Origin: Acidaminococcaceae bacterium
Lineage (GTDB): Bacteria > Bacillota > Negativicutes > Acidaminococcales > Acidaminococcaceae
NCBI GenBank assembly: GCA_034180005.1
Contig: JAXFPC010000024.1
Coordinates: 6,246 to 38,245, forward strand
Direction of reading: 5' to 3'
DNA length: 32,000 bases
Below the pieces are notes generated by a model that worked only from the letters and a program-made list of their open reading frames with translations, was not told the origin of the DNA and ran no database searches. Position 1 is the first letter of the stretch, and each line of letters begins with the position of its first letter. Below are positions 19,329 through 32,000 of the stretch, in pieces. The position numbers were made by a program, and so were the translations under genes.

Positions 19329-19820
19329 TTATTTCGAATTGCGCAGTTCAACCCTAGCCGCCTGCACAAGGCGACGAACCTCGTCGCGTGATACGTCAAG
19401 ATTATCAACGGGTATATTCTGCTTGACTTCGGAAGCAACAGTTTTATGCTCCTCCTTAAAAGAACTATTCTCAAGCGCAGGTTTCTGTTCTGCAGCTGTA
19501 GCCTGAATCTGCGTTCTTACCGGCTCCGATATGGCAACCCGGTCGCTTTGAGGCGCGATGTTTTTTCTGGCGTAAAACCATCCGCTTAAACCAGAAATAA
19601 CAAGCAAAACTGAACAGAGCACTGCCAAAAGCTGCCTGTTCCAACACCACACCGAAGAATCCCTGCGGCGCAAATTTTTCAACTCGGCCTCTGCAAGCAT
19701 AAGATCCAGCTCTCCACGCAACTCTCTTTTATCGAGAAAACTTTTCTCAGCGTTTTCCAAACTGTTTTTCGCAGCGGTAATACGCCGGAGCAAAGTTCTG
19801 CCGTTCTCAGCCACCTGCAC
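19329..19820 (-). CDS. Single-pass membrane protein of unknown function (candidate anti-sigma or regulatory partner, speculative)
   Basis: 163 aa. Helical charged N-terminal region (LENAEKSFLDKRELRGELDLMLAEAELKNLRRR), one TM helix (LLAVLCSVLLVISGLSGWFYA), and an ~80-aa polar tail. GTG starts at 19820 and 19814 follow AAGGAGG. The stop is 19 nt from the bamA start. Confidence 0.7.
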   Translation of the reverse strand: MQVAENGRTLLRRITAAKNSLENAEKSFLDKRELRGELDLMLAEAELKNLRRRDSSVWCWNRQLLAVLCSVLLVISGLSGWFYARKNIAPQSDRVAISEPVRTQIQATAAEQKPALENSSFKEEHKTVASEVKQNIPVDNLDVSRDEVRRLVQAARVELRNSK

Positions 19821-19991
19821 GACCTCCTTTAAGTTTTACTCGGATGATACCTCTTTCAAAAACATTCTGACTTTTTATATAGAGTCATACTTTTTTATGA
19901 ATTATCTACATTGATTTAATTAAAATATGCCGGCATTTCCTCAAAATTACTCATTATTTCTCAAATTATCAATAATATCATGCTGAAATCA

Positions 19992-20627
19992 TCATGAATT
20001 ATTCAAGTCATGCATGAACCTCGACAACATTCCGCGTATACGTCGCACACCCTTCTTCTGCAACCTGTAAACATGCCCCAAGCTTACGTTAATGGTATCT
20101 GCTACAGCTTGAGCCGTTCTGTCTTCGATATAAATTTCCTGCAACACCTGCTGCTCCTTAGCCGGCAATCTTTGCAACGCCTGTTCTACTTTCTCTTTTA
20201 CTGCAAGCTGTTCAAATATCTCCGCCGGAGAACAAGCGTCGGACGGCAACACATCAGCAAGAGTGACTCCCTGATACAGTTCGCTTTCCAAAGAAAGGTC
20301 AACATTTTTACTGCAGGAACGAAGATAATCTATCATACTTCCTTTAATGCGGTAGGAAGCGAATAAACTGAAAGCCACTTTGCGAGTATGATCGTAGCTG
20401 TCAGCTGCTTCCAAAAGTCCAACCATGCCTTCTTGAATAAGTTCCATAGTTTCAGTCTCAGGGAGTTTGAAAGCAACAGCTATTTTAAATACCAACGGTT
20501 GGTACGAAAGCATCAGCTTTTGGTGCGCCTGTAAATCACCCCGAGCCGACAACTCCCATAAAGCCATTTCTTCTTCTGTTCTTAACAACGGTTGCTTGCG
20601 CAATTCCGCCAAATATTCCTGCAGCAT
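19992..20627 (-). CDS. RNA polymerase sigma factor, sigma-70 family (non-ECF-looking, group-3-like)
   Basis: 211 aa. Region 1.2/2.1-like LRTEEEMALWELSARGDLQAHQKLMLSYQPLVFKIA, region 2.2 ELIQEGMVGLLEAADSYD, region 4 HTH TAQAVADTINVSLGHVYRLQKKGVRRIR. ATG with a GGGAG RBS, 23 nt after the tamB stop. Confidence 0.85.
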   Translation of the reverse strand: MLQEYLAELRKQPLLRTEEEMALWELSARGDLQAHQKLMLSYQPLVFKIAVAFKLPETETMELIQEGMVGLLEAADSYDHTRKVAFSLFASYRIKGSMIDYLRSCSKNVDLSLESELYQGVTLADVLPSDACSPAEIFEQLAVKEKVEQALQRLPAKEQQVLQEIYIEDRTAQAVADTINVSLGHVYRLQKKGVRRIRGMLSRFMHDLNNS

Positions 20628-20650: not shown

Positions 20651-23600
20651 TTAAAAGGTTAGCTTATATTCCACCCCGTACCAATGTTCTTTTTCTTTCA
20701 GCTTGCTGCTGTTGTTAGAATACGTTATGTTAAAATTATCGCTTATATCGTACTGCCCGAAGATACTTCTGTCAATACCGTCAAAGCTTGTCGTGTAACC
20801 AATCATAAAACGATCAGTTAAATATTTGCTCACCAGAATATTATACTGTCTCCGCTCATCCTTTGTAAGATCGCGTACTCTGTAGCTGCTGCCGGAATAT
20901 CCGATGCCCGAGCGAACCCGTCCGTTATAAATCTTAAATTGGTCTAAGCCCAGCCATTTCTCGACAAAATCCTCCACTTCTCCAAGAATTGTCATCTGGA
21001 GTCCTGCTGTCAGCAAATTAGCCATGTCGTCTCCGGTAATATAATCATTGCCAGCAATATCTCTCTGCAAAGTCAACATTCTCACTATAGTGTTTTTATC
21101 GAGAGGAGGATCGCTGCTTAGCTGCAGATCCATATTGTCGAGTTGTCCGGCAATGCGCATGGCAATATTATACCTGTTGAACCGCGCTCTGCTTTCCAAA
21201 TTTATATTGGGAATAAAGCTGCCTGCATCAATCCAAACAAGCCTTGCTTCATCAACTTTAAAGTTGGTGCGCAGATAAGTTACTGTTCCTTTCGTCGACT
21301 TTACGGATCCTTCTATCACGGGGAAAAGCGTGCTGCCCTTCAGCTTCAGACCTCCGCTCACCCAAAGATCATACAAAAAACTGTTGTAAAAATGAATCTT
21401 CGGTCCCAGCTCTATCTGAAGATCCATACCGTAATTGGAACTTCCTTCGCCGAATTCAGGTATCGTAGGCATATTTACCAAAACATCGTCAAATTTTATG
21501 CCACCCTTTATCATAGGTCTGAAAGCACTCGGCGGCGGATTATTTCCTTTTCTGTTTCTGAAATCAAAATATTTTTGCGGCAAAAGTTCAACATCCCCGG
21601 TTATCTTTCCGCTGAAGAGCGATGTATGAATCTCCGCGTTATCCGCTTTCACCTGCAGACTGTACGCCGTATCGGCAGATGTATTCAATGCATAAGTTCC
21701 TGCCGCATAAAGTGTTCCTTTGCCAAGTTTTGCCGACAACTCGGATAAATTGATACTGTTACCGTTAAATTCGGAGCGCAGATTCAGCTGTTCAAAAACT
21801 GTGGAAACATCCTTCAATTTAAGACTGCCGTCTTTAATCTGGATCGATCCGTACAGCAACGGCGATTCAAGTGTTCCGTCAATTTGTACTTTGCCTTGAA
21901 TATCCCCTATGCCCCACTCGACAAAATCTGTTAATGCTGGCAACAAGCCCAAACGAGCATCATCAAAATCAACATCTATCTTCATATGCGCATCTGCATG
22001 TCTGCGCTCTTCCTTGGGCCGGAAAAGATCCAGCGGAATCTCGCCCGACGCTCCCACATTATAAACATCCTTGGATAAAAGCAATTGGTGTAGCTTGAGG
22101 GAATCATCTTTCAGCGACAACACGGCTGTTGCTTTGTCAAGACTTACTCCGTCGATGCTACCGTCGTAAATTTCCACCGATGCTGAACCTGTAGGTGCGT
22201 CAAAACTTCCCTTTAATTCCGCACGTAAATCCGTCGTGCCTTTAATATCCCGCGGCACTTTCATCATAGCGGTAACTATTCCCGGGTCAGCTTTGCGAGC
22301 CGTTAATCCGATATTATATTCCCTTTTTTCAAAATCAACGTCGCCGTTTACAAGAACTATGCCCCTATCTTCAACGCTCTGTTTTTCCTGAAGCTTGACA
22401 TCGTCGAAATAAAGTTTTCCTTCACGCAGTCGTCCCTTAAAATTCAACTGATGGTACAACAGCCGGCTGAGTTTAACGTCATTGGCTGTAACGTCTATGT
22501 CCACACCTGCATTTTCGTCAGAATGCATAGTTATTTTTCCGTTAACAATTCCTTCTATATCATGCTCTACGCGACACATCCTCAAAATACCGCCGACGTC
22601 TCCCCACATGGTCAGTATATCTCCGGAAAGAAAACCGTCCGGAAGACTGATATTTAAATCCGCACTGTACATACCGTAATCAACCGTATTATTTTTATGA
22701 GGTTGCTTGAAAGATACGTTGACTAAATTTTTTCCCTTGCCATTTAAATTGACTCTTCCCTCTACATCGGTAATTGTCTCTCCGTTTATGCTTATATTCT
22801 CTGCCGAAACATTGCCGACAAAAAGAGGTTCTGACAAAGTGCCGCGCAGTTTTCCGGAAGCATTCACCAAACCGGCAAGTACAACGTTGTCACCAGTAAA
22901 AGGTATATTCCCCAAATCTACATTTTGAGACTGCACATCAAAATTTAAACTCTTATCCTGCAGCATGCTGCCGTTCAATACAACCTTGGCGGCATAAGCG
23001 TCCACGCGGAAATCTTTCAGCGTAAGCACTCCACTGTCATAAACGTAACTGCCTGTAATACTGTCAAAAAGATTATCGTCTATGCTGCCGTCCGAAGCAT
23101 AGAGATTCCCCTGCGCATACGGCGCGTCCATACTGCCGCGAATATGCAACTCATTATCCACATTGCCTGTCAAAGGTACGCCACTGTGAAGATGCTCAGC
23201 CAGCGGCTCCAAACGTACGGCATCGGTCTTAAGCGTCAAATCAAGCTGAGGAGTTTCTTCGTTCAAATTTACTGTTCCGCTTAAAATATGCTTGCCCTGC
23301 GACATATTGAAAACAATATTTTCAATGGCAGCAATGCCGTCTTTCAGCACTAAGCTGCCCACAGCACTTTTTACAGGCTGTTTCATGATATCCGCATCAC
23401 GAAGTTCCAAAGATACTTCCATCTCCGGACGATTGATGCTGCCGCGAAGCGCAAATCTTGAGGAAACGTTTCCACCGCTGCATTCAACGCCTACAGCTTC
23501 AAGCAAAGGCTGCAACCGGAAAGCATTCATTTTGCCGACGATATCCATGTTGCCGTTTTTTTCTATATACCCAACCGCATTTATGCTTCCGTCTCCGGAA

Positions 23601-24934
23601 AAAGCGCTGAAATGTTCCGCGTAAAGACGTTCATTTTTATACTTACCGTCAAAAGCCAACTTATGAATTTTTACACCGCGAAAATCAAGCGCCAAACTTT
23701 CTGCAGCCACGTTGACATCAAATCCGTCGTCTGCACGACGTACCAAAAATGCCGCATTTCCGTCCATAGTTACAGCATTTTGCGGCGATGCTTGCGGAGC
23801 ATACCGAATATTTTTCAGTTCAAGATCTCCCGCTGCAGTTTCTGTTGCTGTATTATATGTCCCGCCAAATATAAATGTCCCTTCACCGTAAGTTCCCGTT
23901 CCGTTACTTATATTAAGAATCCTCTCACGGTAAGAAAAAGGCAGCTTAACACCTGTAAAAGCGTGACCGTCATACATGAACCGCTCTGCTGAAACACTGC
24001 CTTCACCGCTTACATTCTCCGGATTTTTCAAATCGGCAGTGCCGCTCAGGAGCAGCCCTTGTCCATCCACTTCGATTGACAGCTTATCTGTTTGTACTAC
24101 ACTGTCGCTGCTTGTAATTTTTCCGCTCAGTTTTATTTTATGTTCGATATCTCGCAGCGCCAACACGCCTGTCACATCGTTCAAAAAACCTGTTCCCGAA
24201 TAGCGCACCTTTTCGCCGTCATTATCATAAATGAGGCGCACTGATTCCACAATACCCGTCATGTCGGCGACACCGCAGTATTCCTGCAGCATCCGAGCAT
24301 AAGAGTCCAGTATGAGCCTTTCACTTGACGCGGTAATATTTCCTGCGCCTTTAGTAGTCACCAATCCTTTCAAAAGAACTTTATTCTCTCCCTCTTGCAG
24401 CTGCAGTTCAGCTGCAAATTTAGGATTGCCTGTTCCGCTGATATCACCGTCTACCGAAAAAAATTTGCTTTCTTCCGTCGTGCTGACATGCAGCCCGCCG
24501 TTTTTTATTTCCAACAACCCGTAAAAAGGTGTGCTGTCAGAATCAGTACTTTTCAAAAATTCCGCTGTGTTCCATTTTTTGTTCTCATCTCGTTTCAGAT
24601 ACACTTGAGGCGCTTGCAATGTTACCCTACTCAGAGAACGTAAAGGATCGCTCAGACCAAGCCATGGTCTGAAACGCAGCTGCACCAGAGGCAGTTCCGC
24701 AATTTTGTCTCCTATCGCATCTTTTATCACAACGTCGCTTAGTTCCGCTTCAAGTCCTCCGTTCCAAACTATTTTGCCGACACTGACTTTTCCATTGATG
24801 TAATCTGTCGCTCTCTCTTCAATTACAGGCAGTAATTCTTTGAAATATTCCGGAGCGACGTCCTTAACCAAGAAGGCGTACCCCGCCGATAAAACTACGC
24901 CAATCAAACAAAAAATTTTTAAAAACAGCTTCAT
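20651..24934 (-). CDS. tamB: Translocation and assembly module protein TamB (AsmA-like, DUF490 C-terminus)
   Basis: About 1427 aa. N-terminal anchor MKLFLKIFCLIGVVLSAGYAFLV, a very long beta-rich body with G/N/D/S-rich repeats, and the C-terminal end HWYGVEYKLTF. The ATG at 24934 has GGAG 6 nt upstream. The track start at 24970 is TTG without an RBS. Confidence 0.85.
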   Translation of the reverse strand: MKLFLKIFCLIGVVLSAGYAFLVKDVAPEYFKELLPVIEERATDYINGKVSVGKIVWNGGLEAELSDVVIKDAIGDKIAELPLVQLRFRPWLGLSDPLRSLSRVTLQAPQVYLKRDENKKWNTAEFLKSTDSDSTPFYGLLEIKNGGLHVSTTEESKFFSVDGDISGTGNPKFAAELQLQEGENKVLLKGLVTTKGAGNITASSERLILDSYARMLQEYCGVADMTGIVESVRLIYDNDGEKVRYSGTGFLNDVTGVLALRDIEHKIKLSGKITSSDSVVQTDKLSIEVDGQGLLLSGTADLKNPENVSGEGSVSAERFMYDGHAFTGVKLPFSYRERILNISNGTGTYGEGTFIFGGTYNTATETAAGDLELKNIRYAPQASPQNAVTMDGNAAFLVRRADDGFDVNVAAESLALDFRGVKIHKLAFDGKYKNERLYAEHFSAFSGDGSINAVGYIEKNGNMDIVGKMNAFRLQPLLEAVGVECSGGNVSSRFALRGSINRPEMEVSLELRDADIMKQPVKSAVGSLVLKDGIAAIENIVFNMSQGKHILSGTVNLNEETPQLDLTLKTDAVRLEPLAEHLHSGVPLTGNVDNELHIRGSMDAPYAQGNLYASDGSIDDNLFDSITGSYVYDSGVLTLKDFRVDAYAAKVVLNGSMLQDKSLNFDVQSQNVDLGNIPFTGDNVVLAGLVNASGKLRGTLSEPLFVGNVSAENISINGETITDVEGRVNLNGKGKNLVNVSFKQPHKNNTVDYGMYSADLNISLPDGFLSGDILTMWGDVGGILRMCRVEHDIEGIVNGKITMHSDENAGVDIDVTANDVKLSRLLYHQLNFKGRLREGKLYFDDVKLQEKQSVEDRGIVLVNGDVDFEKREYNIGLTARKADPGIVTAMMKVPRDIKGTTDLRAELKGSFDAPTGSASVEIYDGSIDGVSLDKATAVLSLKDDSLKLHQLLLSKDVYNVGASGEIPLDLFRPKEERRHADAHMKIDVDFDDARLGLLPALTDFVEWGIGDIQGKVQIDGTLESPLLYGSIQIKDGSLKLKDVSTVFEQLNLRSEFNGNSINLSELSAKLGKGTLYAAGTYALNTSADTAYSLQVKADNAEIHTSLFSGKITGDVELLPQKYFDFRNRKGNNPPPSAFRPMIKGGIKFDDVLVNMPTIPEFGEGSSNYGMDLQIELGPKIHFYNSFLYDLWVSGGLKLKGSTLFPVIEGSVKSTKGTVTYLRTNFKVDEARLVWIDAGSFIPNINLESRARFNRYNIAMRIAGQLDNMDLQLSSDPPLDKNTIVRMLTLQRDIAGNDYITGDDMANLLTAGLQMTILGEVEDFVEKWLGLDQFKIYNGRVRSGIGYSGSSYRVRDLTKDERRQYNILVSKYLTDRFMIGYTTSFDGIDRSIFGQYDISDNFNITYSNNSSKLKEKEHWYGVEYKLTF

Positions 24935-25012
24935 GTTCTGCTCCGATATCCGTTCCATGTAAATCAACAAAAATAATTACCACTATTCTACTTCGACACA
25001 AGGTATAATCTT

Positions 25013-25095: not shown

Positions 25096-26439
25096 TTATT
25101 TTGAAACAGACGTCTCAACTTTTATCGGCACTGCCATCGGCTCACCTATGGATGTCAACAAATTTGTTTTCGCAGTATTATAATCATACATAGCTGTAAA
25201 ATAATTATTCTTAGCGTCTGTTAGAGCAACCTGCGCATCCAACACATCAGTGTTCGTAGCAACGCCGGCACGATAACTCAACTGTGCTATGCGGAAATCC
25301 TCTTCGGCTTTAGCAACTGCCATCTCCGTAGTTTTGATTCTTTTTTCCGCTTCTCGCAAGCTCAGATAATTACTGCGCACATCCAAATTAACAGTGTCAA
25401 CCGTGTTGCGATACGCTTCTTCGGCAGAGTGAAGATTTGCTTCCGCTCCGTGTATTTTCGACAAAGTAACGCCGGAATCAAAAATATTCAGAGAAACATT
25501 AACGCCGACGCCCCACTTACCGTTGTCATCTCCGGGCCAATCAGTACCGTCCCAATTTTGCGTAGCACCTAAAGCTACCGTAGGCATATGACCGCTCCGC
25601 GCAATCTGCAAAGCGCCCTTGTAAACGTTCACTTTCTGACGCGCCTGCTCCAGCTCAGGCCTATGCTCGGCTGCATAGTCGAGGCAATATTTCAGATCTT
25701 TATCGTAAGGAGTATAGTTAAGCACATACTGAAGCTTCAGTGTCGTATCCAAAGGCAGACCGACAACTCTGTTCAAATTCGCTTCCGCCAGATGATAAGC
25801 ATTTTCCGCTTTCAGCAAACTTTGTTGCGCTCCTGCCAACTCAACTTCACTACGCAACACGTCCACCTTGGCTACGACACCCACTTCATACTGAGCGTTA
25901 ACGTTCTTAAGATGATCTTCCAGGCGCTGTACTGATTCTTTACCCAACTGCTGCATATTATCCGCCTGCAAAACGCTGAAATAACTGTTGGTCACATTTG
26001 AGCGCATTTCATTGTACGCTTTTTGTATTCCCACCTCAGCGATTCTATAGGATGCCTCAGCTTGTTTGGCATTGCCTTCCAACTTGCCTCCCGTAAAAAT
26101 CGGCAAACTTACAGAAAGACCGTTGGCATATTTATTGCCTATCCCTTTGCTGTAAATTCCCGGAATAACTTCCTGATAATCATTATAACCGCCACGATTG
26201 GTACTGTGAGTTCCCGTAATGCTGATGCCGAAGCTTTCGCGAGCCGCGTTATAATTGGAACGCGCATAGTCTCGTTCATAAGATGCTATCTTTAAATCCG
26301 GATGAGTAGCAAACGCTCTCTCCATAGCCTGCTGCAAATCAAGTTCCACTACCTCACCGGCAAATGCTGACCTCGACAGCATGAGTACCGCTGCGGCGGC
26401 AAGAACCAATCCTCTGTTTCCATATTTATAAATGCTCAT
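25096..26439 (-). CDS. tolC: TolC-family outer membrane channel (OEP family)
   Basis: About 447 aa. Signal peptide MSIYKYGNRGLVLAAAAVLMLSRSAFA. The mature start LDLQQAMERAFATHPDLKIA and the duplicated helical/beta repeat architecture are typical of TolC/OprM. The ATG at 26439 has GGAGG 7 nt upstream. The track start at 26457 is GTG and would contain that RBS. Confidence 0.88.
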   Translation of the reverse strand: MSIYKYGNRGLVLAAAAVLMLSRSAFAGEVVELDLQQAMERAFATHPDLKIASYERDYARSNYNAARESFGISITGTHSTNRGGYNDYQEVIPGIYSKGIGNKYANGLSVSLPIFTGGKLEGNAKQAEASYRIAEVGIQKAYNEMRSNVTNSYFSVLQADNMQQLGKESVQRLEDHLKNVNAQYEVGVVAKVDVLRSEVELAGAQQSLLKAENAYHLAEANLNRVVGLPLDTTLKLQYVLNYTPYDKDLKYCLDYAAEHRPELEQARQKVNVYKGALQIARSGHMPTVALGATQNWDGTDWPGDDNGKWGVGVNVSLNIFDSGVTLSKIHGAEANLHSAEEAYRNTVDTVNLDVRSNYLSLREAEKRIKTTEMAVAKAEEDFRIAQLSYRAGVATNTDVLDAQVALTDAKNNYFTAMYDYNTAKTNLLTSIGEPMAVPIKVETSVSK

Positions 26440-26484
26440 CTGTAAACCTCCATTCACAGCTGACTGATTAGTCAGTATAGCAAA

Positions 26485-26546: not shown

Positions 26547-27815
26547 TCAAAAGTAAGAACGCACGCCGAAGTAGGTACCTTTACTATTACCGCGCACATC
26601 CATACTTTCTCCGTAGAGCGAAATACCGTCGCTCAATTTAACTTCGCCGCCCAATCTTACTTTCAGGTTGTCAAAATTATATGCCTGCGAATAAATCTTC
26701 AGAGAATTGCCGAAATCATAGCTTGCTCCCACACCCAGCTCTCCCTGCATCGCACCGGCCTCCAACCCCGCGCGACCGAATTTTCTCCCGGCGATAAAAT
26801 CGACCTTATTGCTGCCCCCTATATCATAACCACCCATATAAATATAGTTTTTCTCTCCGGGCTTCAACTTTACTCCCATACTTCCGCGCCAGTCTCCAGC
26901 TTTAAAACTGCGCCCCGCGTCTAAAGCAAACTCAGCCTCACTGAAAGTCCCTAAAATTTTATTTGCTTTGGCGCTTGTTTCTCTGACGTTCACCAAGGTT
27001 TCTTTAAGAGACTGGCTCGTTACCGGATCCTGCGCCACCTGCTCTAAAACCTTAACTATATTTTCCATGCGTTCGCTAGTTTGAGCCATATGCTGCGCAA
27101 TAGCGGCAACATTTCTGCCTGTGGTACCATCATTGTCCACACCTGTCATAACGCTGTCAATATGGGCTACAGTACTGTTCATATGCCTGCTTAATTCATT
27201 CATTTGCCGAATCATGCTCACCATGTCCTGCTGGCTGGCTACAGCAACCTCTGCCATTATTCCCGTGAACTTATTCATATTCACGGAAATTTCTCCAAAA
27301 TCTTTAAAGCCTGTTTTTAAAGAATTTTGAACCTCCGGATCACCGAAAATATTTTCAAAAGCTACAGCAATTTTTTCCAGCCTTCGTAAAAGTTCTCCGG
27401 AATCGGCAAAAAAGCTATCCATTCCACCTCCGGAAACACCGTTTATATGGCTACCTTCTTCAATGTATCCACTGTCGTAACTGCGGGGCGGTACAATGTT
27501 GACGAATTTTTCTCCTAAAATACCGTCCGCGCTGATAGTAAACGCTGCACCTTTAGGAATTTTTATATTCTTTTCAATATCGGCTACAACTTCCACTTTA
27601 TCCGTCGCTACCTTGATGTCTTTGACTGTACCCACCTGCACCCCGGCATAACGAACCATGTGTCCTTTCATAAGACCATCCACTTGAGGATAGTTTATGT
27701 GCAGCTTATATCCTGCCGGGCCGAAGGACAGCGCTCCCATAAAAGTTATTATTCCGGCCAATACGGCAGCTCCGCTTAATGCGAACGCACCTACTTTCAC
27801 CTCATGGTTTGCCAT
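26547..27815 (-). CDS. mlaD: MCE-domain protein MlaD with long helical region and beta-barrel-like C-terminal extension
   Basis: 422 aa. N-terminal TM VKVGAFALSGAAVLAGIITFMGAL. MCE domain (YKLHINYPQVDGLMKGHMVRYAGVQVGTVKDIKV...ISADGILGEKFVNI). About 160 aa of helix. The last ~120 aa have alternating strand patterns and end in GTYFGVRSYF. ATG with an AAGGAG RBS, overlapping the mlaF 3' end by 14 nt. Confidence 0.85.
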   Translation of the reverse strand: MANHEVKVGAFALSGAAVLAGIITFMGALSFGPAGYKLHINYPQVDGLMKGHMVRYAGVQVGTVKDIKVATDKVEVVADIEKNIKIPKGAAFTISADGILGEKFVNIVPPRSYDSGYIEEGSHINGVSGGGMDSFFADSGELLRRLEKIAVAFENIFGDPEVQNSLKTGFKDFGEISVNMNKFTGIMAEVAVASQQDMVSMIRQMNELSRHMNSTVAHIDSVMTGVDNDGTTGRNVAAIAQHMAQTSERMENIVKVLEQVAQDPVTSQSLKETLVNVRETSAKANKILGTFSEAEFALDAGRSFKAGDWRGSMGVKLKPGEKNYIYMGGYDIGGSNKVDFIAGRKFGRAGLEAGAMQGELGVGASYDFGNSLKIYSQAYNFDNLKVRLGGEVKLSDGISLYGESMDVRGNSKGTYFGVRSYF

Positions 27816-28569
27816 TTTCTATCTCCTTTTTATACTCCAGTCCCTGCAAAAAAGCTTGTACAATCGGATTCTTACTGTTTTTGAACGCTTCCGCGTCGGC
27901 AAGTTCAACTATTTTTCCCTGATACAGCATGGCTATCCTATCCGCTGCTGCAAAAGCCGATTGCATATCGTGCGTTATCAAAACGGAAGTTATCCCCAGC
28001 TGCTTCTGCATTTTTCGTATAAGTTTGGTTATGTTCATCGTCATCACGGGATCCAAACCTGCCGTAGGTTCATCATAAAAAACTATTTGCGGCTGCATTG
28101 CCAAAGCTCTTGCAAGTCCGATACGTTTCTTCATACCGCCTGACAATTCAGAAGGCAACATTTTGTAAGTATCCGGCATACCGACCATCTCTAGAAGTCG
28201 GCACACTCTGATTGCTATTTCCTCTTCAGACAATTGAAAATATCTTCTCAGTCCGAAAGCAACATTTTCGCCAACATTCAAAAAATCAAACAATGCCGAG
28301 TATTGAAAAACTACGCCCATTTTTTTGCGCAACTCATCCATTTCATCATCGCTGCAGCCATTTATTTCTCTGCCGCAGATGCAAACACTGCCGGCATCCG
28401 GTCGCAGTAAACCGGTCAAGACTTTCATGATCGTACTCTTACCGGTTCCTGAAGGACCGATGACAGCTAGTGTCTCCCCTGATTTAATATCCAAATCGAT
28501 TTTGTCCAAAACTACTTTTTCGCCGAAAGCTACTTCCAGCTGCCGTATTTGTATCAACACTTCTTCCAT
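27802..28569 (-). CDS. mlaF: ABC transporter ATP-binding protein MlaF
   Basis: Walker A GPSGTGKST, signature LSGGMKKRIGLARAL, Walker B IVFYDEPTAGLDP. I prefer the ATG at 28569 (MEEVLIQIRQLEV, AAGGAG upstream, typical MlaF length). The track start at 28602 is TTG and overlaps mlaE. Confidence 0.9.
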   Translation of the reverse strand: MEEVLIQIRQLEVAFGEKVVLDKIDLDIKSGETLAVIGPSGTGKSTIMKVLTGLLRPDAGSVCICGREINGCSDDEMDELRKKMGVVFQYSALFDFLNVGENVAFGLRRYFQLSEEEIAIRVCRLLEMVGMPDTYKMLPSELSGGMKKRIGLARALAMQPQIVFYDEPTAGLDPVMTMNITKLIRKMQKQLGITSVLITHDMQSAFAAADRIAMLYQGKIVELADAEAFKNSKNPIVQAFLQGLEYKKEIENGKP

Positions 28570-28585
28570 AATACGCGTCAGCTCC

Positions 28586-29356
28586 TTACACATACAAGAC
28601 AATCGACAGAAAATAGTTAACTATGAAAATTAAAATAATTGAAAGTACTACGGATGATGTGGTGGCCAGCCCCACACCTTCAGCTCCGTTGGGAGCATTA
28701 AGTCCCTTATAACTTCCGACTATGGCGATTATGGCTCCGAAGAAAGAGCTTTTAATCATCCCTCCGAAAATATCGTAAAATTCCATCAGTGTGCGTATGG
28801 AATTTTCATACGTAAAACTGCTGATGCCGGCATAAAAATGAGCAACGATCCATCCACCTATATTACCCAGCAGATTAGCAAAAATCACCAATATCGGCAT
28901 CATCATCACCATGGCAATAAATCTCGGTACCACAAGAAAAGCGACAGGATTGGCTGCCATAACTTTCAGAGCGTCAATCTGCTCAGTCACCTTCATCGTG
29001 CCCAACTCAGCTGCGATGGCTGCACCTATTCTTCCGGCCACAACTACACCTGTAAGTACCGGTACCAGTTCACGCGCCATAGCAATAGCTACAATACCTC
29101 CGACGGAAGCTGCAGCTCCTAATTTCACAAACTCCTTGGCTGTCTGCACTGCAAAAACCATACCGGTGCAAACAATTGTGATCAATACTATCGGCAGAGA
29201 ATTCGCTCCCAGCAAAGCCATCTGGCGAACGATCTCTCGCCAATCGGCGCGATTCAATTTCTGCAGTGTGGAAATGAATAAAAGCGTAATTTCTCCGCAG
29301 GCTTCGCAAAATCTCAATATTCTGTTTCCCAAGACACCGCAAATATCAGTCAACAT
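28586..29356 (-). CDS. mlaE: ABC transporter permease MlaE
   Basis: About 256 aa, polytopic. LGANSLPIVLITIVCTGMVFAVQTA and EQIDALKVMAANP are typical of the MlaE/YrbE family. The ATG at 29356 has an AAGGA RBS. The track start at 29371 is GTG. Confidence 0.9.
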   Translation of the reverse strand: MLTDICGVLGNRILRFCEACGEITLLFISTLQKLNRADWREIVRQMALLGANSLPIVLITIVCTGMVFAVQTAKEFVKLGAAASVGGIVAIAMARELVPVLTGVVVAGRIGAAIAAELGTMKVTEQIDALKVMAANPVAFLVVPRFIAMVMMMPILVIFANLLGNIGGWIVAHFYAGISSFTYENSIRTLMEFYDIFGGMIKSSFFGAIIAIVGSYKGLNAPNGAEGVGLATTSSVVLSIILIFIVNYFLSIVLYV

Positions 29357-29392
29357 ATAACATCCTTTCACGGGTTAAACCGTTGCAAAGAT

Positions 29393-31048
29393 TTATTTAA
29401 CAGTCAAGACTACTTCCACTTCGCCATCAACAATAAAATCAAAAGGATACTTCTTTTTATAGGGAGAACCGTGCAGCAATCCTTCCAACCCGGTATCAGG
29501 CTGCTCTTCATCAGGTCGCTTACCGCTGGATAAGTCAATAATTATCTCATTATTTTTATCGGCGTTATTAATATTTTTTACATAATCAAAAAGTGTCCTC
29601 TGCTTTTCTTTCTTCTTAGCTGCCGGAGCACCCTCTTCTTTTTGTTTGCGCAGAAGATCTATTACCCAAGCGAAGCTGCTGCCGCCTCTGACATTCAGTG
29701 CCAATTTCGGTTCGCTGTATTTCTCGGGCACGATAAAATTTATCTTTCTCTGAAAAGATTCTCCCCTATAAGGCTTCAGTTCAACGGTGAACTCGACTTT
29801 TTCCCCCGGTTTCACCACTGACTTATCCGTCTTTACACTGATTATCTCGGCGACCTGCACAGCTTCCGACAATTCCGCCTCAACATTAACACCGTACACA
29901 TCGATATCGGTAAATTTATTTTTCATCAACACGGAAGTAGCATCCGACAGCTCAACATTGATATTTTTCAATAAATTACTTACGGCATAATACATATTTT
30001 CTCTTTTAATTTCCAGCATTTTTTTATCTTGATCTCTGCCGGTAATAGTGAAAACCACTTTAGCCGTACCTCCGCCGTTTCTGTCCATAGTTTTGCTGGC
30101 AGTATTAACAACAGCCGCGTCGACTACAGCCGGAAAAAGTTCCGCGTCTTCAATAACATTGACTCTTGTACTGTTGGTAACGCCTCTGTCTTTATCGGCG
30201 ACGGAAACAAAAACCGGAACTGTCGGAGGCAATTTCCCGATGACTCCGCCTATACCACTGAAACGATCCTGATCAAAATGCCCCAAAGCGTCACCGATGG
30301 TACCGACTTTATAGCTACTCTGCAAATTAGGAACACACCCAAGAATCCAGGATTTAGTCATAAAAAATCCGCTGTTTCCGCGTTGCATGAAAGGATGACC
30401 GAACGCAAGCACTCTCCCGTTGTCATCAGTCCAGGTGACGGTACCCAAAGCGCCCAGAGTAAGATCACCTTTCATAATAGCAACACCCACAGCACTGCCT
30501 GGTTCAAGTTTAGTCTTCGAAGTAACATCTGTGCTTCCCGATCCTACAGGTTGAAAACCGAAACCGTTCAAACGCTCCTGCAAATATTCCAATCCGTACT
30601 CGGTAAATCCTCCCGCCATCAAAGGTGTACCTTGAGGAATCCAATGAGCGTCTCTTCGCGCAGGTTCATCCAACATCCGCAGCATGCTCCCTATGGGAGT
30701 AAGAAAACAATAATGCGGATCGTTAAAAGTTCTTCCGTAAGCAACAGCGCCCACCAGCCTGCCGTCGACATAAACAGGGCTGCCGCTCATACCTTGAGCT
30801 ACTCCGCCCGTTTTATCTATCAACGAACCGTACAAACGCACAAAAATATTGTATCCCGCCGCTTCACTGCCGGTAACTCCGAGGATTTCCACATCAAAAT
30901 CTTCAATGGTATCACCTGATATAACCGTCTTTCCGATACCGTGCATCCCGGGTTTTATATCTTTGATCGGCATCAAAGATATATTGGCGGCAACTGCCGT
31001 CAAATTAACGCAGAACATGATAAGTGTCAAAATTATCTTAAAAGCCAT
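29393..31048 (-). CDS. Secreted peptidase S55 (SpoIVB-like) domain protein
   Basis: 551 aa. N-terminal signal/anchor MAFKIILTLIMFCVNLTAVAA. Serine block GGVAQGMSGSPVYVDGRLVGAVAYG (GMSGSP encoded at 30776..30793). His block LGALGTVTWTDDNGRVLAFGHPF (AFGHPF encoded at 30389..30406). The C-terminal half is beta-rich, followed by a K/E-rich segment. ATG with a GGGAG RBS. Confidence 0.75.
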   Translation of the reverse strand: MAFKIILTLIMFCVNLTAVAANISLMPIKDIKPGMHGIGKTVISGDTIEDFDVEILGVTGSEAAGYNIFVRLYGSLIDKTGGVAQGMSGSPVYVDGRLVGAVAYGRTFNDPHYCFLTPIGSMLRMLDEPARRDAHWIPQGTPLMAGGFTEYGLEYLQERLNGFGFQPVGSGSTDVTSKTKLEPGSAVGVAIMKGDLTLGALGTVTWTDDNGRVLAFGHPFMQRGNSGFFMTKSWILGCVPNLQSSYKVGTIGDALGHFDQDRFSGIGGVIGKLPPTVPVFVSVADKDRGVTNSTRVNVIEDAELFPAVVDAAVVNTASKTMDRNGGGTAKVVFTITGRDQDKKMLEIKRENMYYAVSNLLKNINVELSDATSVLMKNKFTDIDVYGVNVEAELSEAVQVAEIISVKTDKSVVKPGEKVEFTVELKPYRGESFQRKINFIVPEKYSEPKLALNVRGGSSFAWVIDLLRKQKEEGAPAAKKKEKQRTLFDYVKNINNADKNNEIIIDLSSGKRPDEEQPDTGLEGLLHGSPYKKKYPFDFIVDGEVEVVLTVK

Positions 31049-31129
31049 TTTTTCTCCCGGAGCTAAAACTCTCTTCTATAACTGTCAAAAATCTCAGCAA
31101 AGCATAAAACATACACCATTTCATTATAA

Positions 31130-31158
31130 ATTATACAACTACAACATTGCTTTTACAA
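31130..31158 (-). promoter_or_regulatory. Predicted sigma-A-type promoter for the S55-mlaEFD unit (-35 TTGTAA, 17-bp spacer, -10 TATAAT)
   Basis: Minus strand reads TTGTAA (31158..31153), AAGCAATGTTGTAGTTG (17 nt), TATAAT (31135..31130). A second TATAAT follows 1 nt downstream. Pattern match only. Confidence 0.5.
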
Positions 31159-31164
31159 GGCTCA

Positions 31165-32000
31165 CTAAATCGGGAACAATCCCATGCCCATGCTGATGCG
31201 TCTTTCTCTTCCATCCGACGGTCTGTTAACAATTCTGCCTCGGATAATCATTTCGCTCGAACCGCCACCGTCAAAATTGACGGCATCCTTGACACCGAGT
31301 CGTAACATGTACATGGCAATTTCTTCGAGCGTCATGCCGGAAGAAAGTTTACTGCGTCCATCCACGACAAAAAGTATAAGCGTTCCATCTTTCTTCAATC
31401 CCACAGCAGTCCGCGGCGCTCTGCCGATTGCTATATCCGCAGCGATATTCTCTTCCAACGTTCGCACATTAATCTTTCCGTTTTCCAACAAAAGCGGACC
31501 TCCGCCGATAACTGTTTCCGCCTTATCCGCTTCCGGCGTTCCCAGCGTTTCAAATATAACAGCTGTATCACCGAGTTTCAATTTCGCCAAAGCTTGCGCA
31601 TAAATTCCGTGTCCCGATAAAACGACCGTACCCTGTTCAATTTTCATATTGCCGGCAGATGAAACGGCGACCACCTTATTGCCCTTTATTTTAACTTCAT
31701 AGCCATACGCATTTGTCTTAGTTGATTCCGCAAAATGTTCGTTGTACAAAATAAAATCGTCGGTAAGTCTGGATCTGTTCATTCCTTTAATCTGTAGGTA
31801 CTTGGCTCCCGGCAGGCGCACTTTGCCAGTATACTGCAAATCTCTTGCCAGCATACGTTTATTTTTTAAGGCTATGTAACCGCTGCGTCTCTGTTCATCC
31901 ATACTCAAAAATTTTCCATGATCTTTTGTGCTGCCGATAACCCAACCGTCCGTATCAAAATAAGATGCGTTTACAGCCACGGGCAATTCTCGACGTGCAG
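31165..32000 (-). CDS. Phosphodiester glycosidase family protein (DUF2233/NAGPA-like), 3' part (gene runs off the right window edge)
   Basis: AVNFDGGGSS near the C-terminus and GRAPRTAVGLKKDGTLILFVVDGR are typical of this family. The track start at 31986 is TTG, and the frame stays open upstream to the window end, so the true start is probably outside the window. Confidence 0.7.
   Translation of the reverse strand, partial: ARRELPVAVNASYFDTDGWVIGSTKDHGKFLSMDEQRRSGYIALKNKRMLARDLQYTGKVRLPGAKYLQIKGMNRSRLTDDFILYNEHFAESTKTNAYGYEVKIKGNKVVAVSSAGNMKIEQGTVVLSGHGIYAQALAKLKLGDTAVIFETLGTPEADKAETVIGGGPLLLENGKINVRTLEENIAADIAIGRAPRTAVGLKKDGTLILFVVDGRSKLSSGMTLEEIAMYMLRLGVKDAVNFDGGGSSEMIIRGRIVNRPSDGRERRISMGMGLFPI

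Follow-up and report, generated by a model that had tools for sequence, protein, structure and literature searches.

A candidate circularly permuted S55-type serine protease encoded ahead of mlaEFD in an Acidaminococcaceae bacterium

Background

The window analysed here is the whole stretch of 32,000 nucleotides (nt) from contig JAXFPC010000024.1 (positions 6,246 to 38,245 of the forward strand) of the Acidaminococcaceae bacterium assembly GCA_034180005.1. Its gene at 29393..31048 on the minus strand poses an unusual question: can a protease related to SpoIVB (family S55) carry the two halves of its catalytic domain in swapped order, and what would such a protein do next to the mlaEFD genes of an outer-membrane (OM) cluster? 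A sequence-only reading of the window had proposed that the half with the Ser comes before the half with the His, as in a circular permutation of the chymotrypsin-like fold. On the evidence presented below, we consider it probable that this gene, which we refer to as S55L (S55-like), encodes a Sec-exported envelope serine endopeptidase with a catalytic domain that represents the S55 two-barrel fold in circularly permuted form. The gene assignment itself is based on the open reading frame (ORF) call, a partial Pfam S55 match and more than 6,000 homologue clusters.

Results

The two halves of the catalytic domain

The ORF starts with ATG and encodes 551 amino acids (aa), with exactly the coordinates given to it previously. 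Its residues 1-21 (30986..31048, minus strand, as are all features of the gene) read as a Sec-type signal peptide, MAFKIILTLIMFCVNLTAVA|A, without a lipobox and with a putative cleavage site; the region forms a helix (residues 2-20) in the predicted model, and the hydrophobic N-terminus is kept across the family alignment. Searches with Pfam aligned residues 23-122 with positions 110-209 of the 210 positions of Peptidase_S55 (PF05580; E 2.2e-14) and scored them at 54.4 bits (gathering cut-off 25), so that only the C-terminal, Ser-bearing half of the profile was matched. The SpoIVB crystal chain 9lnf_A was aligned at its residues 224-306 (E 7.9e-8), the SpoIVB equivalog model TIGR02860 was matched at positions 302-397 of 402, and the hhalign comparison of a profile of 84 family members with a profile of 34 SpoIVB proteins returned E 2.8e-18 for the Ser region. 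Since all four comparisons place the C-terminal half of S55 at this point, the Ser barrel stands directly behind the signal peptide, and the space before residue 23 is too short for another barrel. The motif block GIGKTV...GMSGSPVYVDGRLVGAVAYG lies at residues 37-105, just where it had been reported. The motif GMSGSP (residues 86-91, 30776..30793) occurs once in the protein, in agreement with the earlier remark that no second copy follows, and is aligned in pairwise comparisons with the SpoIVB GMSGSP that bears Ser378; by this alignment and by conservation, S88 (codon 30785-30787) is the predicted nucleophile. In the model, the strands of this unit fall within residues 36-118 and a helix occupies residues 119-127. 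Taken together, the alignments indicate that residues 23-127 (30668..30982) are equivalent to the C-terminal barrel of SpoIVB with its C-terminal helix.

Is the other half of the S55 domain present further along the chain? The block LGALGTVTWTDDNGRVLAFGHPF, likened to the His region of SpoIVB, was found at residues 198-220 as described, and TIGDALGHFDQDRFSGIGG is located at residues 250-268. When the family residues 128-310 were compared with full-length SpoIVB by hhalign, exactly two local matches were obtained, and they are collinear: residues 197-218 fall on the SpoIVB His block GIGT..GALGH (P 0.011), and residues 247-272 on the conserved SpoIVB block that comes next (P 0.074). HMMER also sets the family motif 'aiGTvTyvdg..drilAFGH' on the His236 block of SpoIVB, with a negative domain score.

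To place the halves in the SpoIVB order, residues 170-300 were put before residues 23-128, and these re-permuted constructs were scanned against S55 models. The re-permuted window protein reached 61.9 bits with Pfam S55 in an alignment over profile positions 15-209, versus 51-53 bits for the shuffled, reversed and Ser-only controls, which were aligned from positions 102-116 on. Five other members of the family (29-38% identity to the window protein) scored 19.5, 8.9, 7.0, 10.8 and 9.8 bits above their reversed controls; the score thus rose upon re-permutation in all six members tested, and the alignment began at profile positions 12-15 in three of these five as well as in the window protein. 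A hidden Markov model (HMM) restricted to SpoIVB was built from 80 diverse canonical SpoIVB sequences of the metagenome scan (L082-L161). With this HMM, the alignment took in the His half for 58 of the 84 real constructs, for none of 84 reversed constructs and for one of 420 shuffled constructs; the gain averaged 3.9 bits and was positive in 72 of 84 cases, and the re-permuted window protein gave one alignment spanning HMM positions 29-225. Local hhalign scores of the re-permuted profiles did not differ from the controls (134.3 vs 134.5), the Ser half dominating the score. A near-full S55 match was seen after artificial re-ordering only, and the native protein does not have the N-to-C motif order of SpoIVB. 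Judged from these comparisons, residues ~181-300 (30149..30508) and the N-terminal barrel of S55 are homologous, and because of this homology the halves stand in swapped order. The proposed permutation of the S55/chymotrypsin-like domain is hence supported by Pfam, hhalign, re-permutation and the Foldseek results given below, which agree, and the absence of a PDZ domain holds as well, as Pfam gives no PDZ match at E up to 1.

Candidate catalytic residues

Which residues could form the active site of such a domain? In an alignment of 84 diverse homologues, down to 26% identity, G86, S88, G89, S90, P91, G202, T203, H218 (codon 30395-30397), D261 (codon 30266-30268) and R262 are invariant (84/84), and D195 is present in 81; the last six of these, from D195 to R262, belong to the His-bearing barrel. 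All 61 loci that have one S55L ORF carry the same residue set. The aspartates D46, D50 and D52, suggested earlier as possible members of the triad, are variable among the 84 homologues and are ruled out as the triad acid by this poor conservation, the conserved acids being D261 and D195.

D261 follows H218 by 43 residues and stands, in the model, where strand five of the second barrel ends, which is about the place that Asp102 takes relative to His57 in chymotrypsin. The hhalign comparison pairs D261 with SpoIVB Asn290, one of six residues invariant in all 80 SpoIVB sequences (His236, Asn290, Asp363, Ser378, Thr393 and His394), but the equivalence is tentative because HMMER aligns the same stretch differently. 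Asn290 is reportedly (Hoa et al. 2002) the site of a delayed-signalling mutant. D195 is located within an R-G-D, eight residues ahead of the G-T threonine; in SpoIVB, a near-invariant R-D stands seven residues ahead of its own G-T Thr, with Asp213 in 78 of 80 sequences. Asp363, the published third member of the SpoIVB triad, lies ~24 A from His236 in the 2025 crystal structure (PMC12502668). Its position is a near-invariant Gly (G74) in the permuted family, in which, among the positions of Asp213, Asn290 and Asp363, that of Asp213 (D195) alone stays acidic. By conservation, S88-H218-D261 is the triad that we consider most likely, D195 being the alternative acid, and an active Ser-His-Asp site with the chain order S88, (D195), H218, D261 is very probable. 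This differs from the order of clan PA: to our knowledge, all proteases of the chymotrypsin fold in MEROPS follow the order His-Asp-Ser.

Predicted structure

One more piece of evidence was provided by AlphaFold2 models of the full-length protein (predicted local distance difference test, pLDDT, 92.1; predicted template modelling score, pTM, 0.88) and of the domain at residues 22-300 (pLDDT 93.9, pTM 0.91). The chain runs from a six-strand unit (36-118) and a helix (119-127) through an alpha/beta linker to a second strand-rich unit (186-299), in which H218 follows the third strand. The linker (residues 128-180, 30509..30667), which would join the old C-terminus of S55 to its old N-terminus, comprises a strand (143-146), a helix (150-163) and another strand (167-170), its pLDDT falls to 57-63 near residues 131-140, and its counterpart is absent from the SpoIVB alignments. 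When the domain model was compared with the PDB by Foldseek, SpoIVB 9lnf came first (E 1.6e-3, probability 1.00, 119 columns, 28% identity), and the top 50 matches were all chymotrypsin-fold (clan PA) proteases, several with probability 1.00, including HtrA, DegP, DegS, plant Deg proteases, Rv3671c, MucD, trypsin and chymase. The alignments form two classes, one of ~110-125 columns with a root-mean-square deviation (rmsd) of 3.4-7.6 A and one of ~180-360 columns with an rmsd of 15.8-23.1 A, so that the well-superposed part covers about half of the fold. These two classes are the pattern expected if a sequential aligner meets a two-barrel protein with the barrels in opposite order. The full-length model gave weak PDB matches, with SpoIVB absent from the top 50. 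The domain is confidently modelled as a two-barrel, chymotrypsin-like fold.

After residue 299, the model continues with a long helix, beta-sandwich domains to residue ~455, a charged helical tail and a small C-terminal beta unit. The helix and the immunoglobulin (Ig)-like beta-sandwich domains (residues 301-455, 29684..30148) occur family-wide and have a pLDDT above 94, with weak Pfam Ig-like matches at residues 387-455; D322, R323, R349, N351, G415 and R428 are near-invariant there in the 84-sequence alignment. The helical Lys/Glu-rich segment and the C-terminal beta unit (residues 456-551) occupy, with the stop codon, 29393..29683.

Family size and gene context in other genomes

Clustered at 50% identity, the homologues form 6,318 clusters at E up to 1e-3 and 1,658 clusters at E up to 1e-30. 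How is the gene placed in these genomes? In a survey of one genome per species, with the best 80 loci kept, the nearest species-level relatives belong to Phascolarctobacterium (at most 65% identity). Loci were found in Negativicutes, other diderm Bacillota (Limnochordia and unnamed metagenome-assembled genomes, MAGs), Armatimonadota, Atribacterota, Riflebacteria, Synergistaceae, Bipolaricaulota, Thermotogae, Planctomycetota (anammox genera), Acidobacteriota (Aminicenantes, Bryobacterales, Vicinamibacterales), Zixibacteria and Latescibacterota. Five contigs labelled Lachnospiraceae or Eubacteriales (L026, L061, L062, L064 and L070) show the gene order usual for Megasphaera (L026) or for Aminicenantes (c15-c16-S55L-downstream-ORF), and the taxonomy assigned to these MAG contigs may not be reliable.

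All Negativicutes loci share the order (MurA-MreB or flgA-H-I-J)-NAGPA-(small lipoyl-like ORF)-S55L-mlaE-mlaF-mlaD-tolC-tamB, one mla gene having been missed by ORF calling or tblastn in a few of them, and NAGPA is conserved upstream of S55L in 26 loci. The link of S55L with mlaEFD was also observed in Riflebacteria (L046), Synergistaceae (L051) and a GBS-1 MAG (L068). Among the 75 S55L ORFs with a called downstream ORF, the next gene on the same strand is mlaE in 26 and tamB in 12; the latter loci come from diderm Bacillota MAGs, Armatimonadota and a few MAGs labelled bacterium or candidate taxa, with gaps mostly of 12-29 nt. Neither mlaE nor tamB directly follows S55L at the surveyed loci of Planctomycetota, Aminicenantes and Bipolaricaulota. 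The mla linkage is consequently not specific to the genome of the window, a possibility that the sequence-only reading had set against itself: synteny extends across Negativicutes and into other phyla, and the coupling to envelope lipid-transport genes is recurrent, not universal.

The small lipoyl-like ORF mentioned above encodes a signal-peptide protein of ~100 aa with a biotin-lipoyl/HlyD-like barrel-sandwich domain and lies between NAGPA and S55L in most Negativicutes (L007-L022, L056 and L073). By position it corresponds to Vpar_0520 of Veillonella parvula, and it is missing from the window (31049-31164) and from several Phascolarctobacterium loci.

In 14 loci of other phyla, S55L is followed by an ORF of 690-750 aa, with gaps of -52 to +32 nt in most (L050, L052, L058, L062-L065, L067, L069-L071, L075, L078 and L080). 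They belong to Aminicenantes, Planctomycetota, other Acidobacteriota, Zixibacteria and Latescibacterota. The downstream ORF of L050, the one scanned, has Pfam matches to the beta-propeller repeat Reg_prop. We had considered ORFs of this kind (720-750 aa) as catalytically dead paralogues and rejected this idea, given that BLAST shows no similarity between them and the protease and that the L050 product carries beta-propeller repeats. At an Armatimonadia locus (L081, 6001-7518 region), the S55L match lies inside a 1373-aa ORF, probably a fusion of S55L with the downstream ORF, and this apparent fusion is probably the reason why single-linkage clustering merged the downstream ORFs into the S55L cluster.

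Tandem S55L paralogues were observed at two loci (L033:3860-7659 and L044:2949-6859); both copies keep GMSGSP, the His and the Asp-Arg, and tamB is the next gene. Such tandem copies would be raw material for a permutation that arises by duplication and then partial deletion.

Gene neighbourhood in the window

Downstream of S55L, the distance from the stop codon to mlaE is 21 nt if mlaE starts at GTG 29371 and 36 nt if it starts at ATG 29356, which has AAAGGA ahead of it; both values are as given previously. Because this spacer (29357..29392, minus strand) is short and contains no terminator-like site, S55L is likely co-transcribed with mlaE. An own promoter had been predicted for the gene. A promoter-like site, TTGTAA-17-TATAAT, does occur 80-110 nt upstream of the start (31130..31158, minus strand; 10 of 12 consensus positions), which bears out the presence of a consensus site, but a sequence match of this kind is no sign of function.

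The genes that follow on the minus strand were assigned by Pfam as mlaE (28586-29371), mlaF (27802-28602), mlaD (26547-27815, 422 aa), tolC (25096-26457) and tamB (20651-24970), and past tamB, on the same strand, lie a sigma factor gene, a small ORF and BamA. Upstream, a NAGPA/DUF2233-type phosphodiester glycosidase gene (31165..31986, minus strand; PF09992, E 9e-38) reaches the window edge, so that its start is uncertain. In MlaD, the MCE domain comprises residues 35-110 only and is followed by a long C-terminal extension ending in ...GVRSYF; this architecture fits the trans-envelope MlaD with an OM beta-barrel published for Negativicutes (PMC10665443, PMC13018214).

The interval between tamB and bamA (19329-20627, minus strand) holds a sigma-70-family (ECF-like, i.e., extracytoplasmic-function-like) gene at 19992-20627 and a 163-aa ORF without a Pfam match at 19329-19820. 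These two could be a sigma/anti-sigma pair; the natural partner of such a pair would be a site-1-type protease. Over the whole window (1-32000), all large ORFs of recognisable function lie on the minus strand and the GC skew stays between -0.12 and -0.30; because of this, the window is a single co-oriented block, probably on one replichore.

Orthologues described previously

Has this protein been described before? Poppleton et al. 2017 detected Vpar_0521 in OM preparations of V. parvula and described it as having an 'N-terminus SpoIVB' domain and DUF1090, as conserved in diderm Firmicutes and as having a role 'to be determined' (PMC5491611). Since Vpar_0519, two genes upstream, is a DUF2233/NAGPA neighbour, Vpar_0521 is the positional orthologue of S55L. 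The V. parvula gene at L020 shows the same half-S55 match (residues 27-129 on profile positions 108-209); its product is ~110 residues longer than that of the window gene and has a tail that is longer and richer in Lys and Glu, probably the reason for the DUF1090/COG3064 label used in that paper (PMC5491611). Poppleton et al. state that Vpar_0521 had been flagged as conserved in diderm Firmicutes by Antunes et al. 2016 (PMC5491611); the searched text of Antunes et al. 2016 mentions only 'hypothetical proteins' of the cluster and names neither S55L nor Vpar_0521. Grasekamp et al. 2023 described mlaEFD-tolC-tamB as conserved in all Negativicutes, and the order in the window agrees (PMC10665443); the passages of that paper on mlaEFD-tolC-tamB do not mention the S55L gene. 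In Acetonema longum, F7NM31, annotated as 'peptidase S55 domain-containing', co-eluted with BamA (PMC13018214). Its accession is three numbers from that of MlaD (F7NM28), which makes it an orthologue by position.

The location in an OM cluster, which the sequence-only reading had regarded as unexpected, is thus real, but it had already been noted for Vpar_0521 in 2016-2017 (PMC5491611). The papers on Vpar_0521 and F7NM31 speak of an 'N-terminal SpoIVB domain' only, did not recognise the His barrel or the permutation and state the function to be unknown. In the full-text literature searched, we found no description of a swapped S55 order, although other papers or structure-classification databases might hold one. 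What appears to be new is the permutation, together with the recognition of the His barrel and of the candidate acids; the link to the OM cluster was already known.

Discussion

How could such a protein work? After the signal peptide, the chain would form the barrel that is C-terminal in SpoIVB, with the nucleophile S88 in GMSGSP and the terminal helix, and a linker of ~55 residues would then lead to the barrel that is N-terminal in SpoIVB, with the general base H218 in G-T-x-T...F-G-H. This second barrel would also bear the invariant D261-R262 at the end of its fifth strand, near the place of chymotrypsin Asp102, and the catalytic residues would follow each other in the linear order Ser...His...Asp instead of His...Asp...Ser. 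The beta-sandwich domains and the charged tail probably bind partners or substrates. S55L is most likely co-transcribed with mlaEFD-tolC-tamB, and its product probably acts in the periplasm or at the OM on components of OM biogenesis or lipid transport; we suggest such a role in envelope biogenesis because the protein is predicted to be exported, because its position before mlaEFD-tolC-tamB or tamB is conserved and because there are proteomic hints. That S88, H218 and D261 (or D195) meet in space is something we infer, as are the enzyme activity, the location and the substrate.

Several results weigh against this interpretation. The His half alone gave nothing relevant when residues 127-395 were compared with Pfam and residues 127-343 with the PDB, its stand-alone hhalign similarity is weak (P ~0.01 and ~0.07), and in a column-shuffle control 2 of 40 shuffles reached an equal score. 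Semi-global hhalign ('-glob') on the re-permuted profiles was uninformative, a narrower HMM from Bacillaceae SpoIVB only gave a re-permutation gain of 1.1 bits, the pairing of D261 with Asn290 is not reproduced by HMMER, and the best Foldseek E-value is modest (1.6e-3). As to function, most loci of other phyla have no mla or tamB neighbour, and the co-immunoprecipitation of F7NM31 with BamA comprises three peptides (PMC13018214).

Part of these results could be explained if only the Ser barrel came from S55 and residues 181-300 were an unrelated beta-domain, with an independent His or none at all and with a G-T-x-T...G-H that is convergent or due to chance. The missing Pfam and PDB matches of the isolated His half, the local profile-profile scores only marginally above those of column-shuffled controls and the superposition of about half of the domain by Foldseek would all be compatible with such a half-domain fusion. 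It does not account, however, for the order-dependent extension of the alignments into the N-terminal half of S55 (six of six members with Pfam; 58 of 84 with the SpoIVB-only HMM vs 1 of 504 controls), for the collinearity of both matched blocks with SpoIVB or for the R-(G)-D located 7-8 residues before G-T in both families; the strands of residues 186-270, with the His after the third, also fit the first barrel of a chymotrypsin-type protease. We regard this fusion as unlikely. Slightly less likely still is a permuted fold that does not cleave and serves as a structural partner or scaffold of the Mla, TamB or BamA machinery. The large non-catalytic beta-sandwich domains, the co-purification of the orthologue F7NM31 with BamA and the pairing of the gene with a beta-propeller protein in other phyla, apparently fused once, speak in its favour, but S88 in an intact GMSGSP, H218 and D261-R262 are invariant in 84 sequences and 61 single-ORF loci, which is the pattern expected of an active enzyme, as pseudo-enzymes usually lose such residues.

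Could the gene simply be a SpoIVB orthologue with an unusual gene model, acting in sporulation signalling at the sigma-K checkpoint? SpoIVB/S55 is the sole named database match, and the claim that a SpoIVB-type protease stands in the OM cluster holds as far as S55 homology is concerned. Orthology, on the other hand, is practically out of the question and was rejected on score, PDZ absence, residues and gene context. TIGR02860 gives 52.7 bits vs a cut-off of 305.25; all full-length SpoIVB matches carry PDZ Pfam domains, none of which is seen here, and no room is left for a barrel before residue 23. The SpoIVB-invariant Asn290, Asp363, Thr393 and His394 are not kept, corresponding to D261, G74, A103 and Y104 of the window protein (the Asn290 pairing being tentative). 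The gene lies in an OM cluster, whereas the Bacillus-type spoIVB lies between recN and spo0A, and homologues occur in the non-sporulating Veillonella and in Planctomycetota, Acidobacteriota, Synergistaceae and many other non-Firmicute groups, with no restriction to endospore formers. All these comparisons indicate that S55L is not a SpoIVB orthologue and belongs to a separate, much larger family.

Searches for SpoIVB itself are complicated by sequence quality. In a long-read assembly (L001:1600-3000), spoIVB, between recN and spo0A, is split over at least four frames by frameshifts, and such frameshifts explain the many short 'SpoIVB' fragments in the protein database. A 94-aa SpoIVB fragment used as a query retrieved short fragments only, and the full S55 domain query was therefore stitched by hand from this frameshifted gene; BLASTP against the stitched domain matched the Ser half and otherwise gave noise.

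If the permuted serine endopeptidase that we prefer is real, a wider scenario can be sketched, which we offer tentatively and think somewhat less likely to be right in full than wrong. S55L would be the first natural circular permutant recognised in clan PA (Ser-His-Asp) and an ancient, widespread diderm envelope family, a dedicated accessory of Mla, TamB and BamA, with SpoIVB either its re-permuted, PDZ-bearing derivative in endospore formers or a descendant of such an ancestor. A natural family with swapped barrels would show that the chymotrypsin fold tolerates permutation at the junction between the barrels, and the permutation would explain the 'half' S55 domain in thousands of database proteins. 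The family also bears on the third catalytic residue of SpoIVB, a question raised by the 2025 structure, as the position of Asp363 is Gly in S55L and two candidate acid positions emerge: D195, equivalent to SpoIVB Asp213 and common to both families, and D261, where SpoIVB has Asn290. The OM systems of diderm Firmicutes lack MlaA, MlaC, TamA and the Bam lipoproteins. Few conserved proteins of their OM cluster are without a known function, and S55L is among them; its predicted active site (S88, H218 and D261) opens its role to direct tests in V. parvula, which is genetically tractable.

Comparison with known proteases

With SpoIVB of B. subtilis (MEROPS S55, PF05580, 9lnf), the family shares the homologous two-barrel domain, GMSGSP, G-T-x-T...G-H, the R-(G)-D before G-T, the terminal helix after the Ser barrel and export across the membrane. 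In S55L, however, the barrels are swapped, with Ser first and His second, joined by the linker of ~55 residues; the PDZ domain is absent, and ~250 C-terminal residues of beta-sandwich and charged tail are added. Asp363, Thr393 and His394 of SpoIVB are replaced by Gly, Ala/Ser/Gly and Tyr across the S55L family, and D261 stands where hhalign places the invariant Asn290. The genes also differ in their surroundings, that of SpoIVB lying between recN and spo0A and that of S55L in the OM cluster, and S55L has by far the broader taxonomic distribution. HtrA, DegP and DegS, the periplasmic proteases of clan PA, have in common with S55L the general fold detected by Foldseek and the envelope location, but there is no significant sequence similarity, and the PDZ domains usual for the HtrA type are absent from S55L. 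DegP serves in the quality control of outer-membrane proteins.

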